Assembly (NCBI GenBank): GCA_951406725.2
Contig: OX597829.1
Coordinates: 57,846,001-57,910,000 of the forward strand
Length of the DNA: 64,000 nt
Origin: Octopus vulgaris
Lineage: Eukaryota
Reading direction: 5' to 3'
Shown in pieces: positions 30,150 through 62,859 of the stretch (position 1 is the stretch's first letter; each line of letters begins with the position of its first letter). A program made the translations under genes and the position numbers. The notes under the pieces were generated by a model, which was not told the origin of the DNA, did not search any database, and saw nothing but the letters and a program-made list of their open reading frames with translations.

Positions 30150-30514
30150 TACTCTTTACTCTTTTACTTGTTTCAGTCCTTTGACTGTGGCCATGCTGGA
30201 GCACCGCCTTTAGTCGAGCAAATCAACCCCAGGGCTTATCCTTTGTAAGCCTAGTACTTATTCTATCGGTATCTTTTGCCGAACCGCTAATTTACGGGGA
30301 CATAAACACACCAGCATCTGTTGTCAAGCGATGTTGCGGGGACAAAGACAGATACACATATACACACACATGCATACATATATACATATATATACGTCTA
30401 CCAAATCCATTCACAAGGCTTTGGTCAGCCCGAGGCTATAGTAGAAGACACTTGACCAAGGTGCCACGCAGTGGGACTGAACCCTGAACCATGTGGTTGG
30501 TAAGCAAGCTACTT
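30150..30514 (-). mobile_element. SINE-A, split in its tRNA head by an insertion
   Basis: Family alignment stops at GGTAAGCAAGCTACTT. Confidence 0.88.
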
Positions 30515-32936
30515 TTATTCATAAAATTGGCCATGAAAGCCGTACACAGATGAGTAGCTGCGGGCTGAACAAAAACATTAAGGAGATGAGGATGATAATG
30601 ATGAACAAAAATGGGAGGGGAACCGGCCCCCGCCGACCGATAACCTCTCGAAATCATTGTTCTTTTATTCAATTTTACACAAAAAAATCACAATAATTAC
30701 AAAATTTTTTTTAATCTTCCTCTTTCTCATCCGAGCCCCCGCATAAGTTCCCTGCCGCCTGCAGGAAAGCCTGCATCGGCAGGTCGGAGTCCGGAAGAAA
30801 AGCAAATTCTTCTTTTCCAGTGGTCACCAAAACCTCAAAAAGTTCTTTTTGTGTTATGACCTCCGCAGCCACCTGTGGAGGCCAACTTGGACAGTCAATG
30901 CAGACCGAGTGGTAACGTTGTCGGTCGAGAAGCCTGTTCAAGAATCCCTCGACAGCCCCTCCCTTGGGATAGAAAATTACGGGTTCTACCTCTTCCTCGC
31001 GGGGAGGGGCCTCAGCCTTCTCTGTCAGTGGCACAATTTCCACTGACGGAGTCTTTTCTGCCGGTGGCACACATCCCACCTGCAGATCATTGGGATCTGT
31101 CGGCGGCACATCAACCTCCGCCGACCGTATCCCATTTTTTTCTTTTTCTTCTTTTGTTTCTCTTCTTTGGGCTTGCGGTAGTCAGAGCCTCTATCGGCTT
31201 ATCCGTGTGGTTTGCTTCCTCTCTCGCAACCTGTATGTCTTTTGGTGAGCAACCATTGTCACTCACCTTTCTTTTCCTTTTCTGGGAGGCAACCGCCTCC
31301 ACTACTTCCTCCGTTTCCCCCTCCAATTGGATGGGGACGGAGGGCACTTTTTCTTTTTTTTTCTCTGCGCCAGGGCCTTACCTCGGCCCTGGGGGCAGTT
31401 CTTTTCGATGTGACCTGGTTCCAGGCACAAGTGACACTTGGTGGGGGGGGTCGACCCTCAAGAATCACTGGATACCTGGCCCCGGCCATTACCAAGAAAT
31501 CAGGGAATACTAGGCCTCCGGCCGACTGGGTCCAAAGGGTCATAACTGCTTTTGACACTGTCCAATCGGTCGCTGACTCCACCCTGACACTGAGGAGCTT
31601 GGTTCCGCTCCCGCCAAGACCTCTACGAATGGTCTGTTCTATCCATTCAGACCGAATTCAGGGCGGCAGTCAACATACCCAAGCCCGCGTTATTTTCTTT
31701 CCACAATATGTGGGAAGGAACAACATCTCATCCCCTTCTAGGGGTTGAATTGCCGCAGTGCAAGCTATCTCAGGGGTGTCAAATACCAACCACAACGTTG
31801 CATACTTGACACCCCTGGACACAAAGTAATTTTTTGCTGGCAAACATTTTGCCAGCTCTTTATCAATGATACTCTTGTCGAAGGGGGCGATGGCGTCACG
31901 CGACCTAGAATAGGTTCGTTGTACCATCGTCCTCCTCTCAAGGTTTTCAAGTCACTGCTTGGGTGGGACAATCTCCCACTCCGAAGCGGTGGCCTTATTT
32001 TCCTTCATATTAAAATGTCCACATGAAATAAACAACAAACAAAAATTCTAAATACTGGAAAAATAGAGAAAACTGTTCAATAAAGGGGGAAGAAATGAAA
32101 AATTGTTCAATCTTCGGGGGCAAAGACACTCCCCCACCAAACAGCAGTTCTCACAATTATTTTTTAATCTCTTCTTCAAATGCATAGTTTTCGAAACCTC
32201 TTAGTTGGTTTGAGAACAACAATAATTCTTCTTCAATTTTTCTCCACTGTAGAAAAACAACAATTTACATCAAAAAATTCCGGTTTGCTTCTCGGGATGT
32301 TCAAACAAGTTCACCGGCAACAAGCCACACACACTTTGCTTGCAAAACAAGCAACAAATTCACCGCCAAGAGTAAGCGAAAATGTCCCCAGAGCAGGGCA
32401 GAATATACTGTAATAAAAATAAGATAATAATTCTGCCCAACTCCGAAAAAACAAAATCGCTCACCCTGACGTCAACCAGCTATACGTCTTCAATAAAGGC
32501 TGAAGAAAAATTGTTCAATCTTCGGAGGCAAAGACACTCCCCCACACAGTAGTTCTCACAATTATTTTTAAAATCTTCAAAAATGAACAAATTTTTAGTG
32601 GGCACGATACTCCTCCAAGCAACAATTCTCATAATTAAGTGAGAAAAATAGTCACTCAACATAAACCGCTAACTAGGAAGACGAACGCCCCCAAACAAAA
32701 GTTCTCACAATTAAGCGAGAAAAAATATTCGCTCCATTCAGGCAGAACCAGAATTCTGAATCCAGTAGGACTTCCTGCCTGTACAAAAAATTCTCAACAA
32801 AAATTCCCACTGGACCCAAAAAAACAGAATCTTACCTTACAATGGAGCTTCAAATTTTTTCAATTCGAGACGGCTTCAAAAGCATGTCTCACCGTTTCAG
32901 TGCCAAACACAACACTGACTCGCACATGCGCAATGA
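30515..32936 (-). mobile_element. ORF1-only Tx1-type non-autonomous retroelement E1, with 16-bp TSD
   Basis: Frameshifted ORF1 (RTYSR..RGVKYATLWLVFDTPE..FLPTYCGKKITRAWVC, decayed Zn knuckle), no ORF2. TSD at 30499-30514 and 32937-32952. Confidence 0.82.
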
Positions 32937-33706
32937 GGTAAGCAAGCTACTTTATTTTATTAAATTTGCCATAAAGGCAATACACAGAGGGGACACTGCA
33001 ACACATGTGGGGACATATAACAACTAAAAGATAAAATATGATATAATGAATGCACATGAAGAACAAATTAAAATATGAAAATATGAATGATATCTGAAAA
33101 TGATATTATGAAGAGTGCGCTTCCCTTGTGTTTAAATGTACACAATTGTATATTGAGTGTGTGTGTGTGTGTGTGTGTGTGTGTGTGTGTGTGTGTGTGT
33201 GTGTGTGTGTGCGTGTGCGCGTGTATACACACACATATATATATATATATATATACATATGTATACACACACAGAGATATATCTGTATTTATACCTATTT
33301 CTATCTATCTATACACACGTACACACACAAACACACACACACACATACATATATGTATATATATACATACATACATACATACATACATACATACATACAT
33401 ACATATATATATATATATATATATATATATATATATATATATATATATATATATATAAGGGTAAAATATGAAAAATCAACGAAAACGCATATTGCAAATA
33501 GAAAAAGGCTATTTATGACAGGTAGTGACAAATATATACATTTAGATTGACTGAGGTAGTAATACGAGTCATAAAAGTCATTATTATGAGATGATTATAA
33601 GATGATAATAAAGTAAGAGAATAAAACGAACCAGTAGTTTACGCAACGCTATTCATCGTTTATGTGTGTGTGTGTGTGTGTGTGTGTGTGTGTGTGTGTA
33701 ATATAC

Positions 33707-60760: not shown

Positions 60761-62798
60761 TATTTCATAGAAATTTGCCATAAAGGCATTACACAGAGTA
60801 GCTTGCGGGCTAGACATAAACATTAATGAAGCGGATGATTATGATGAAAAATTATAAAGATGGTAGAAGGCAGAAGGCGCCCCACCCCCACCCTCTGCTT
60901 CTCTATAACATTATTTTTTTCCCCAAAAATGCATAAACTGAGGTAATGACCCTCTTACAAAAAATACAATTTCTTGGACCAAAAGTCCAAACAATCAAAA
61001 TACAGTCTATACACCAATTAGAGGCAATAAACTTCTACACTTCCTCCCCCAGCAAATCTCGTGCAACTTGCAGGCACTGTTTCCACCAAAATCGGGAGTT
61101 CCAATGGAGAATTCTGAAAATCTCGCCTCCACACAAGTCGATTATCATATTGCATTGTTTTCTTTCCAGCACCAGAGCAGCCACCTGCGAGGCCACTCTG
61201 AGCTGTCAATGCAATTTGGTTCCCTTAGAATCCAACTGTCCATCTTATTCTCGACAAAACTGTCGATAGCCCCTCCCTTGAGATAGCAGAACATACATTC
61301 CTCACTACCTTTACTAGGAGGGGCCTCAACTCCCTCACTTGGTAGCACACATCCCACCGGCGAGGTCATATCCCCCCCCCCCTCCGGTGGCACACATCCC
61401 ACCGAAGGGGCTTTGGGACATGCCATCACCGGCAATACCCCATTCTTCCTTTTCTTTTTCTTCTTTCCCTTTTACGACGGGAGGGTGGAGTTCCTCTGGC
61501 ATCTCCAGAGAACCCTACCTCGCCCCTGCTGTCTCAGGATCCATGGGTGGGCAACCATTGTTGTCCCCCTTTTTCCTCTTCTTCCACTTTTTTGAGGAGG
61601 TTACCTCCTCCTCAACTTTTTCCTCCACTGGGGGAACAGGGGACACCTCTTCAATTAACTGCTCCAGGACCCTTGCCTGGTCCCGGCGACAGTTTTTCTT
61701 GATATGACCCGATTCCAGGCACGGGTGACACTTGTGGGGGCGTCCCTCAACCATCACTGTGTACCTGGAATCGGACATTGTCAAAAAATCTGGTAAAACC
61801 AGATCTTTGGCTGATTTGGTCCATAGGCTCAAAATTGCTTTCAACCCCACCCAGTCAGCCACAGGAAGCATTCTGACATTTAAGAGCTTGGCTCCGCTGC
61901 CACCCAGACCCCGGCGGATAGTATCCTCTATCTACTCTGGCTCAATTCCGGGTGGCAGCCCACACACCCACGCTCTCGTCAATTTTCGCCCACCGTATGT
62001 GGGGAGAAACAAAATCTTCTCCCCTTCGACTGGTTGGCACGCAAACCCTTCTGCCTCCGTTGGGGTGTCAAAAAGAACACACACAGTTCTGTACTTTGCA
62101 CCCCTACAAATAAATCGAAAAGTTGGCAGGTACTTTGCCAACTCTTCCTTAATGTCAGACTGAGAGAACTCAGCGATGGCTTCAAGGACCCTAGAGTAGG
62201 TCCTTAACACCACCGTTCTCTCAGTATAATTTTTGAGCCAATCTTTGGGGGTCATAATTCGCCAGTCCAAAGCGGTATTTTTTGTTTCCATTTTTTTTCC
62301 AAAACTAAAATAAAAATAAAAGTGTTCAAATAAAAAGTCAATAATATAACACAAAGAAAGAATGGAAAGACAGACGTGAGAAAAAGGAATGAAGGAAAAT
62401 AGTTCAACTGGCAACAAAATTCTGCTACTTAGGTAATCCACAAGTCACAGCACAAAAATTGAATTCTCTACCGACCTCACACTCCTTGCCTGAATGGTAA
62501 ATCCAAAGGTACAGGCACGAACACAGCAAAAAACAGACAAAAATTTTTTCCAAAAACACTATTCTCAATGCAAAATGAGTCTCTTCGCAGAACCACAGGT
62601 AGGCAAATGTCTGAAACAGAGTGGAGTCTATTGCTCAACAAAAATTATTAATTACAGAGCAACAAACTCCACTTAGTCCCCCCCCCCCACCCAAATAAAA
62701 CAAACGCCTACTTGTAGTCGTGCTTCAAATGTTCAATTTTCACGTCGCAAGACATGACTTCCAAGCAGCATGAAAAATGTGAACTCTTCTGTCAGTGA
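60761..62798 (-). mobile_element. ORF1-only Tx1-type non-autonomous retroelement E2, with 16-bp TSD
   Basis: ORF1 VLRTYSR..RGAKYRTV..FLPTYGGRKLTRAWVC..CHPCLESGHIKKNC, no ORF2. TSD at 60745-60760 and 62799-62814, after which the SINE resumes. Confidence 0.88.
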
Positions 62799-62859
62799 GG
62801 TAAGCAAGCTACTTACCAGACACCCACTCCTGTGCCTATATATATATATATATATATAT

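Follow-up and report, generated by a model that had tools for sequence, protein, structure and literature searches.

The window, a stretch of 64,000 nucleotides of Octopus vulgaris DNA, holds two retroelements, E1 and E2, and the 3′ end of a third, E3 (Table 1). The positions of E1 and E2 given in a preliminary description of this DNA were confirmed, as were their shared orientation, the identical 16-mers flanking them and their first letters (TCATTG in E1, TCACTG in E2). Both had been presented there as diverged homologues encoding only a gag-like ORF1. The homology holds (71% over 384 nt, and 78% over the last ~90 nt), and no ORF2 remnant was found on searching E1 and E2, but the ORF1s are broken by stops and, in E1, also by frameshifts. 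Likewise, placement within a SINE is correct for E2, which has a SINE half on each side, but only in part for E1, whose 5′ neighbour is the end of E3; no SINE head was found 5′ of E1 and E3 in positions 33001-36390. What we take to be an A-box-like stretch before E2 was assigned by eye from the A-box consensus, and the microsatellite of the SINE after E2 is interrupted further on by a second SINE.

Table 1. Retroelements, target copies and host SINE parts in the window.
Feature	Position	Strand	Remark
E1, ORF1-only non-LTR retroelement, decayed, 2422 nt	30515..32936	-	ORF1 core: nearest relative L043, 8.8% distance
E1 ORF1: two RRM-like domains, CCHC knuckle near 31436, basic/acidic tail; stops and frameshifts	30711..32008	-	fold from relative L082, whose ORF1 is open
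E1 downstream copy of target 16-mer, AAGTAGCTTGCTTACC (original target allele)	30499..30514	-	
E1 upstream 16-mer copy, also the junction with the third element; last 5-8 nt probably element-borne	32937..32952	-	
Host SINE 3′ part after E1, B box 30474-30483	30190..30498	-	
E1 tail motif AGCTACT, target-complementary	30553..30559	-	
E3, 3′ end of third element family, terminating at same site; E1 stacked behind E3	32953..33112	-	78% over 160 nt to element ending at same site in L185; last ~40 nt shared
E2, ORF1-only non-LTR retroelement, decayed, 2038 nt	60761..62798	-	
E2 ORF1: start 62291, knuckle near 61730, stop-broken; 3′ limit approximate	61002..62291	-	
E2 downstream copy of target 16-mer	60745..60760	-	
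E2 upstream 16-mer copy; last 5-8 nt probably element-borne	62799..62814	-	
Host SINE head 5′ part before E2, A-box-like stretch 62816-62826	62815..62836	-	
Host SINE 3′ part after E2, B box 60720-60729	60605..60744	-	
E2 tail motif GCAAGCTACT, exact complement of 10 nt of target	60797..60806	-	

With ≤2 mismatches allowed, the target 16-mer has 15 matches across the window where 0.04 would be expected, as it belongs to an abundant SINE; exact empty target sites number more than 53,900. This SINE carries a B box, GGTTCAGTCC, and an acceptor-like stem, and ARAGORN and Rfam give no tRNA match for its head. The octopus SINE OR2 is named as a CORE SINE in the passage concerned of PMC4758252. By a crude test, none of 212 distinct SINE tails in the sampled loci had the site in the 45 nt after it. 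The near-palindrome at the target, noted earlier, is a 6-bp inverted arm pair flanking 7 nt; a role for it in targeting is not supported, given the identical orientation of every copy and the SINE subfamily favoured by most young insertions, in which one arm is broken.

Targeting is strict on the scale of the genome. All 30 copies chosen by ORF1 sequence alone touch a single SINE-head site and share one orientation; at that site lie also 30/30 copies chosen target-blind by the ORF2 of the autonomous partner LINE described below and 30/30 chosen by the last 31 nt of this LINE; a different ORF1-only group, used as control, gave 0/20. The SINE-targeting lineage suggested earlier is thus borne out, with copies at one site and not at random sites. 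Within the young LINE family, bodies differ by 0.95%, flanking SINE halves by 4.9% and empty SINEs by 5.3%, and element and flank distances are uncorrelated (Mantel rho -0.01, n=29). The insertions are independent events in pre-existing SINE copies, with fixed site and orientation. Inheritance of the site by a chimeric unit, in which SINE head, element and SINE body travel together, would account for the presence of both SINE halves around most copies and for the location of 53 of 80 young LINE copies in a single SINE subfamily. It conflicts with the flanking halves, whose divergence is fivefold that of the LINE bodies and on a par with that of empty SINEs, with the use of both SINE subfamilies as targets, and with the truncated and stacked copies that also occupy the site; divergence and absent correlation refute it for the young LINE family, and overall it is barely credible. 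A first set of 44 junctions was rejected as 44 separate events, 14 being on two contigs, where 11 of 12 fetched share a flank (segmental duplicates).

E1 and E2 belong, as decayed copies, to an ORF1-only lineage of ~2-kb elements with several subfamilies. ORF2 is absent from all 30 ORF1-picked loci and from between the ends of 14 complete copies. The ORF1 combines two RRM-like domains with a zinc knuckle (CCHC), the latter detected in only 7 of 38 aligned members; a Pfam scan of the ORF1 fragments in the window gave no match, and a protein search with this ORF1 returned a single match, an unannotated protein of Octopus sinensis. Retention of an own ORF1, proposed in the preliminary description, is supported by dN/dS values of 0.18, 0.22 and 0.26 between subfamilies (E1 versus E2: dN 0.32, dS 1.21), and the ORF1 of the short elements was formerly under purifying selection. 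Copy-versus-majority dN/dS is 0.46-0.68 and not 1, so that the subfamilies conceal further structure and this control is imperfect. The short elements appear to be an old HAL1-like lineage, since their ORF1 is only ~28% identical to that of the partner. HAL1 proper is derived from mammalian L1 and has a poly(A) tail and an L1-type ORF1; the octopus ORF1-only junctions, unlike it, lack an A tail and their ORF1 has tandem RRMs and a knuckle.

The predicted ORF2-bearing partner, sharing both target site and 3′ end, was found: the intact young copy L206 is a 5.44-kb L1/Tx1-type element with an ORF1 of 467 aa and an ORF2 of 1133 aa. Its ORF2 contains Exo_endo_phos (5e-12), RVT_1 (1e-27) and zf-RVT (1e-8) domains and matches human L1 ORF2p at 8e-67 versus R2 at 6e-20, while its ORF1 gives a zf-CCHC match (4e-4, 20.7 bits) marginally below the 20.8 cut-off. 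From the ORF2 domains and separate ORF1, the partner can be assigned to the L1/Tx1 group of non-LTR retrotransposons; membership of the Tx1 clade would fit, and the target preference (30/30 in two target-blind sets) agrees. Short and long elements have the extreme ends alone in common: the first 15 nt of L206 are identical to those of E2, and its last 38 nt are 85-90% identical to ORF1-only tails. The tail motif of L206 is AAGCTACTT. From the shared ends and the common site, the ORF1-only elements are likely to have moved in trans, with the ORF2 of a LINE that uses this site. Such dependence on the reverse transcriptase of a relative recalls HeT-A, a Gag/ORF1-only element likewise with a fixed target, which belongs to the Jockey clade, resides at Drosophila telomeres, targets chromosome ends and makes no TSD. 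Partner copies are ~99% alike, while the closest ORF1-only pairs reach ≤90%; the intact partner is therefore the younger, and the actual driver would be an older relative, of which decayed copies alone are seen. Older relatives of the partner (74-86%) sit at the older SINE subfamily. An ORF2-bearing element with an ORF1 of the E1/E2 type could also occur among 1641 candidates, 40 of which were scored. The Tx1-like ORF2 elements of the window itself (20.6-28.5 kb and 45.7-51.1 kb; 42-63% to the ORF2 of the partner) were rejected as partners, the two 3′ ends examined finishing in (TATC)n.

The shared ends (5′ 15 nt, 3′ 38 nt), together with the broken state of all but a few sampled copies, might also be expected if the ORF1-only elements were recent internal-deletion products of the LINE with a dispensable ORF1. 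With an ORF1 only 21-32% identical to that of the LINE and forming a separate clade (100/100 support), and with dN/dS about 0.2, this origin is extremely unlikely.

The 16-bp flanks had been taken for an identical target site duplication. The two 16-mers are indeed identical, but the 3′ part of the upstream copy follows the element family and not the target, and the ‘TSD’ is thus partly element-borne. In full-length autonomous copies, the upstream site ends in AACC in 67/67 cases, including 20/20 whose target lacks that A, and junction slips of 1 nt affect 15/20 copies with mismatched targets versus 10/47 with matched ones (p=6e-5). GCTAACC followed by TCA marks the autonomous family (30/30), and GCTTACC followed by TCA marks ORF1-only starts (29/30). 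Full-length 5′ junctions therefore contain donor-derived target sequence, a feature of R1/R2-type annealing, and the family-specific landing letters are likely carried in the element RNA. A few truncated copies (L204, L332) do show a true duplication of 15-16 nt with variants common to both copies, as expected for a plain TSD whose upstream letters were altered later by gene conversion or mutation. For the full-length copies this is very improbable, given the donor letter at all 20 mismatched targets in copies only ~1% diverged, the dependence of junction slips on mismatch and the tracking of element family by the upstream letter.

The explanation that we favour, with a probability of about 0.8, is that E1 and E2 are dead ORF1-only copies inserted at one SINE-head site with the help of a LINE acting in trans and of a target mimic at the 5′ end. 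An AP-like endonuclease would nick the bottom strand at GTGGT^AAGTAG, reverse transcription would begin precisely at the tail ...GAAATA without poly(A), and the top strand would be cut up to 15-16 nt downstream, a position that the present data do not fix because duplication lengths in truncated copies vary from about 1 to 16 nt. The RNA would start 5-8 nt upstream of TCA, within the element's own upstream site copy, and full-length cDNA would therefore terminate in a target mimic able to pair with the overhang and overwrite its last letters. Rebuilding of the site by the mimic would explain stacking (~12/80 young copies, an excess over chance not being established) and probably why so many copies are full-length (21 of the first 30 picked by their tail, ~70%).

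Transcription would likely rely on an internal Pol II promoter and not on the split SINE promoter. Reliance on the Pol III promoter of the upstream SINE, first raised as a possibility, is not upheld: the B box is displaced by 2-5.4 kb, none occurs in the first 300 nt of 27 elements, and in all 27 the start is followed after 7-114 nt by ≥4 consecutive T. The same observations weigh against a broader scheme in which transcription starts in the upstream SINE, from the Pol III A box or by read-through, and integration is guided, as in R2, by a longer 5′ SINE sequence in the RNA. In its favour, most copies are preceded by an A-box-like stretch, target-like letters occur at the element 5′ end, and flank-driven transcription is raised for SINEU by Kojima 2015. 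SINE heads upstream of the 16-mer, however, retain private variants, and no head sequence from a donor precedes the stacked copies, so that the donor part must be shorter than 16 nt; this scheme is accordingly unlikely. Contigs from four RNA runs of uncertain type cover the 5′ 1.9 kb of the partner, with no start or strand readable.

The mimic mechanism could be extended to RNA-assisted targeting in an APE-type LINE, which we regard as possible but doubtful. Target sequence at both transcript ends would partly set the target choice and allow near-complete, tail-less and precise 5.4-kb integration, a system able to follow SINE subfamily turnover and common to a guild of ORF1-only passengers. 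At the 5′ end the mimic would overwrite and rebuild the landing site, and in the tail a conserved antisense motif would base-pair to the target strand or to read-through RNA. In predicted folding, the tail joined to the downstream site reaches significance in E2 (z -3.3), but not in E1 (-0.2) or L206 (-1.4).

Several known systems share parts of this organization. Target-specific Tx1-clade LINEs include Xenopus Tx1 in Tx1D, Keno in U2, Dewa in tRNA-Leu spacers and the crocodilian Tx1-Mar in Mariner-N4_AMi, with its passenger SINEU (PMC4494074, PMC3706591). From these accounts they resemble the octopus system as APE-type elements with a fixed target in multicopy sequence and non-autonomous passengers at the same target; in octopus, by contrast, the elements hit a single base position in the tRNA-like head of a SINE and the passengers encode a selected ORF1, and no SINE is named as a target in the relevant passages of the two papers. 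HAL1 (half-L1), as introduced in PMC5753468, is also a non-autonomous L1-group element encoding ORF1p only; it is described from mammals with an L1-type ORF1, unlike the RRM-RRM-CCHC protein and tails without poly(A) in octopus, and the strict site specificity seen here is unmentioned in that passage. [quoted passage not shown] According to the same passages, annealing of carried target sequence is the common feature, but melanogaster-type R1 carries sequence from upstream of the nick (9-bp deletion), whereas the octopus mimic is located within the duplicated stretch, restores the site, is family-specific and serves a dispersed SINE instead of a co-transcribed gene. Dada transposons also integrate at fixed positions of tRNA genes, in some cases within the A box, but are DDE DNA transposons of true tRNA genes, and the word SINE is absent from the main text (PMC3706591).

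The separate parts, namely Tx1 targeting of other repeats, HAL1 and R1/R2 5′ annealing, are thus known; their combination as Tx1-like SINE targeting, ORF1-only passengers and a 5′ mimic was not found in the literature searched, and Repbase or supplements may already name the families. The SINE head joins the known targets of sequence-specific LINEs in a three-level dependence, in which the SINE gives more than 50,000 harmless landing sites, the LINE uses them, and the ORF1-only elements, which retain an RNA-binding protein of their own, probably ride the LINE. As insertion splits the A and B boxes, each SINE copy hit should be silenced. The joining of the 5′ end of non-LTR elements is still poorly understood; two target alleles and a family-specific mimic provide a natural experiment on this step, and the intact L206 makes the mimic system testable. 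For gene insertion based on retrotransposons, precise 5.4-kb insertions that are mostly full-length would be of interest.

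One exact site in a SINE head of Octopus vulgaris receives two kinds of non-LTR elements: an ORF1-only lineage, represented in the window by the decayed E1 and E2, and an autonomous L1/Tx1-type LINE. The system is real, and known parts are newly combined in it: as far as the excerpts of the sources go, targeting is in the style of Tx1-clade LINEs, with a SINE head as the target here (PMC4494074, PMC3706591), the ORF1-only passengers are in the style of HAL1 (PMC5753468), and 5′ annealing is in that of R1 and R2 (PMC2718515, PMC11331408). No SINE-targeting LINE or site-specific ORF1-only L1/Tx1 element was found in the open-access article texts searched.

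The coordinates of E1 and E2, their identical flanking 16-mers and their TCA(T/C)TG starts hold on re-reading of the sequence. The 16-mer is a piece of the SINE head; it has 15 matches in the window, four of them the E1/E2 flanks and most others uninterrupted SINEs. E1 and E2 are 71% alike across 384 nt of ORF1 and 78% across the last ~90 nt, ORF1 is broken in both, and no ORF2 similarity was found in either, in agreement with their description as diverged homologues with a gag-like ORF1 only. That both lie inside a SINE is true of E2, which has a SINE half on each side; E1 has the 3′ half downstream, while its upstream side is the 3′ end of a third element family, making it a stacked insertion.

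Features of the window (window positions)
Feature	Position	Strand	Remarks
E1	30515-32936	-	exact AAGTAGCTTGCTTACC (element sense) on both sides; starts TCATTG
E2	60761-62798	-	exact AAGTAGCTTGCTTACC (element sense) on both sides; starts TCACTG
3′ end of third element family	32953-33112		directly upstream of E1's upstream 16-mer; 78% to element ending at same site in locus L185
Second ORF1-only element	36780-38429	-	363-aa frame including a knuckle, ~31% to each of the other two ORF1s; set in another repeat with 20-bp duplication ATCACTCTGTGAAAGTTTCT
SINE 3′ half beginning exactly at site	58709-58724		upstream sequence matches none of the families seen
Tx1-like ORF2 elements	20612-28530 and 45.7-51.1 kb	-	42-63% to autonomous ORF2
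Decayed RT element	3430-6740		presumably R4/Dong type, by its motifs
Decayed Penelope-like RT with GIY-YIG	34289-35424
Decayed mariner transposases	14213-15255, 44431-45174

Across the 2.8 Gb searched (227 contigs), the site followed by TCA has 44 exact matches, against 0 for a reversed control. Fourteen fall on two contigs (G000 C30, 18.6-20.9 Mb, and C31, 1.06-4.83 Mb) and stem for the most part from a single insertion, copied by segmental duplication with ~40-80 kb between copies; a tandem gene cluster may lie there. Since this search is conditioned on the target, a target-blind one was run with 701 nt inside E2 ORF1, in which 40 scored of 1641 candidates gave 30 loci, E2 among them. Each of the 30 reaches the SINE site with at least one end, in SINE orientation (27 via a 3-mismatch match, three via reading of flanks), against 0/20 loci in a different ORF1-only group of the window, which upholds a single insertion site rather than random ones. 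Both ends are visible in 14 of 40 site-picked stretches (0.7-2.8 kb, and one of 4.7 kb that holds unrelated inserts); neither between these ends nor in the 30 blind loci was an ORF2 found. Among 20 loci related to the element at 36780-38429, three share its site, and further sites recur in other pairs; ORF1-only, site-preferring lineages thus recur in this genome.

The ORF2-bearing partner predicted in the preliminary description, with the same site and 3′ end, exists. The 3′-junction pattern has 104 genome matches; among 30 examined, an ORF2 C terminus lies upstream in six, belonging to a 5.44-kb element, and an E-type ORF1 in 11. Its intact copy L206 encodes a 467-aa ORF1 and a 1133-aa ORF2; the latter has endonuclease, RT and zf-RVT domains, and its closest PDB entry is human L1 ORF2p. 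All 30 copies picked by ORF2 DNA end at the site, as do 30/30 picked by their final 31 nt (a pattern with 106 matches); neither set has poly(A). Sequence common to partner and short elements is limited to the last ~38 nt (85-90%), plus the first 15 nt with E2. Young autonomous copies are ~99% alike and ORF1-only copies at most 90%; older autonomous relatives at 74-86% exist and more probably drove E1 and E2. Knuckle ORF1 and target specificity make membership of Tx1 rather than L1 plausible; a table in PMC13282606 counts L1-Tx1 families among those with recent activity in O. vulgaris. Both 3′ ends read among the window's Tx1-like ORF2 elements terminate in (TATC)n, and their tails have a small GCC...TGGC hairpin and an AATAAA/GAAATA end in common with the SINE-targeting families.

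The SINE is target and not cargo. In 29 young copies, all in one SINE subfamily, bodies are 0.95% apart and flanking SINE halves 4.9%, close to the 5.3% between empty SINEs from that subfamily (n=29), and body and flank divergence are uncorrelated (Mantel rho -0.01, p 0.51). Exact empty 33-mers number 27,671 in the GCTAACC subfamily and 26,278 in the GCTTACC subfamily; the latter is the older, its pairwise divergence of 10% (n=26) resembling that of the ORF1-only subfamilies (11-14%). At three loci (5′ flank of L180, also L054 and L192), a SINE head is apparently inserted or duplicated inside another near the same site.

The supposed identical 16-bp TSD stands in part: the 16-mers are identical at E1 and E2, but the upstream copy is partly element-borne. 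Both junctions were read in 80 young copies, 40 of them chosen for similarity to ORF2 and 40 for their tail pattern; three other copies, short and truncated, and 17 more places on the lists are not among the 80. The upstream site ends AACC in all 67 full-length copies, and this holds for 20/20 in which the original site, downstream, is without that A. Of variants in the target, those at positions 13, 15 and 16 appear upstream in 0/31 cases, those at position 11 in 1/6 and those at position 8 in 1/2. One-nucleotide slips are commoner at mismatched (15/20) than at matched targets (10/47; Fisher p=6e-5), which argues that pairing creates the junction afresh at each insertion. GCTAACC+TCA (62 genome matches) marks the autonomous family in 30/30 loci read and GCTTACC+TCA an ORF1-only start in 29/30; one ORF1-only subfamily has its own upstream version ending ACT, and the same slip is seen in L073. 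In truncated copies the duplicated stretch of true target is about 1 to 16 nt long; in the least biased set (first 30 of 106 tail matches), 21 are full length, four start within 82 nt and five are truncated. In the simplest model, element RNA would start 5-8 nt upstream of TCA. Annealing at the 5′ end has a precedent in melanogaster-type R1 and R2, and tandem arrays within the TSD have one in R1 (PMC2718515; PMC11331408). At L174 (G000 C9, 2.66-2.68 Mb), the tails of three young autonomous copies lie ~5.4 kb apart, in a head-to-tail array at one site.

Two proposed features of the target fare less well. Pol III read-through from the upstream SINE promoter is unlikely, because a run of at least four T begins within 114 nt of the start in 27/27 elements, none has a B box in its first 300 nt, the SINE's own being displaced 2-5.4 kb, upstream heads keep private variants, and 7/67 full-length copies lie directly behind another element's tail. 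By analogy with LINE biology, the SINE-site elements are probably transcribed from an internal Pol II promoter. Nor is the near-palindrome needed, as all copies share one orientation and 53/80 young copies sit at the allele breaking the inverted arm. The tails carry a motif, (A)AGCTAC(T), whose complement lies in the target and which may have a role in recognizing it. It is the longest match (6-10 nt) in 22/26 ORF1-only tails, 35-41 nt from the end, and occurs in 5/5 autonomous tails at 71-73 nt; three control tails lack it at comparable places. Single tail-target matches exceed shuffles only at 8-10 nt, and a stronger sign than match length is that the motif keeps its position in tails which are otherwise unrelated. 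On any role of the motif, tail-folding results are mixed.

ORF1 itself is predicted to be a LINE-type RRM-RRM-knuckle protein. The fold modelled for L082, a relative with an open frame of 404 aa, has a mean pLDDT of 78 and two beta-alpha-beta-beta-alpha-beta domains. In the PDB it matches 47 chains at E<=0.001, tandem-RRM proteins leading, with low TM-scores, and its neighbours in the Atlas belong to zf-CCHC and RRM clusters. A protein search with the ORF1-only ORF1 gave a single match, from Octopus sinensis (66%). ORF1-only proteins share 21-32% identity with autonomous ORF1 and form a clade apart from it (support 100/100; 26 rows, at least 140 aa). Among 46 copies spanning a 200-codon core, with three subfamilies of 11-15 copies, the proposed dN/dS check gives 0.18, 0.22 and 0.26 between subfamily majorities, none with a stop, and 0.46-0.68 for copies against their own majority; E1 versus E2 gives dN 0.32 and dS 1.21. 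In the 5′ UTR of L206, nt 19-35 hold an inner junction-like copy, TTTGC(T/C)TACC, then (G/T)TACTAC, a stretch similar to the beginning of one ORF1-only subfamily; this suggests that the 5′ end grew through an earlier stacked insertion.
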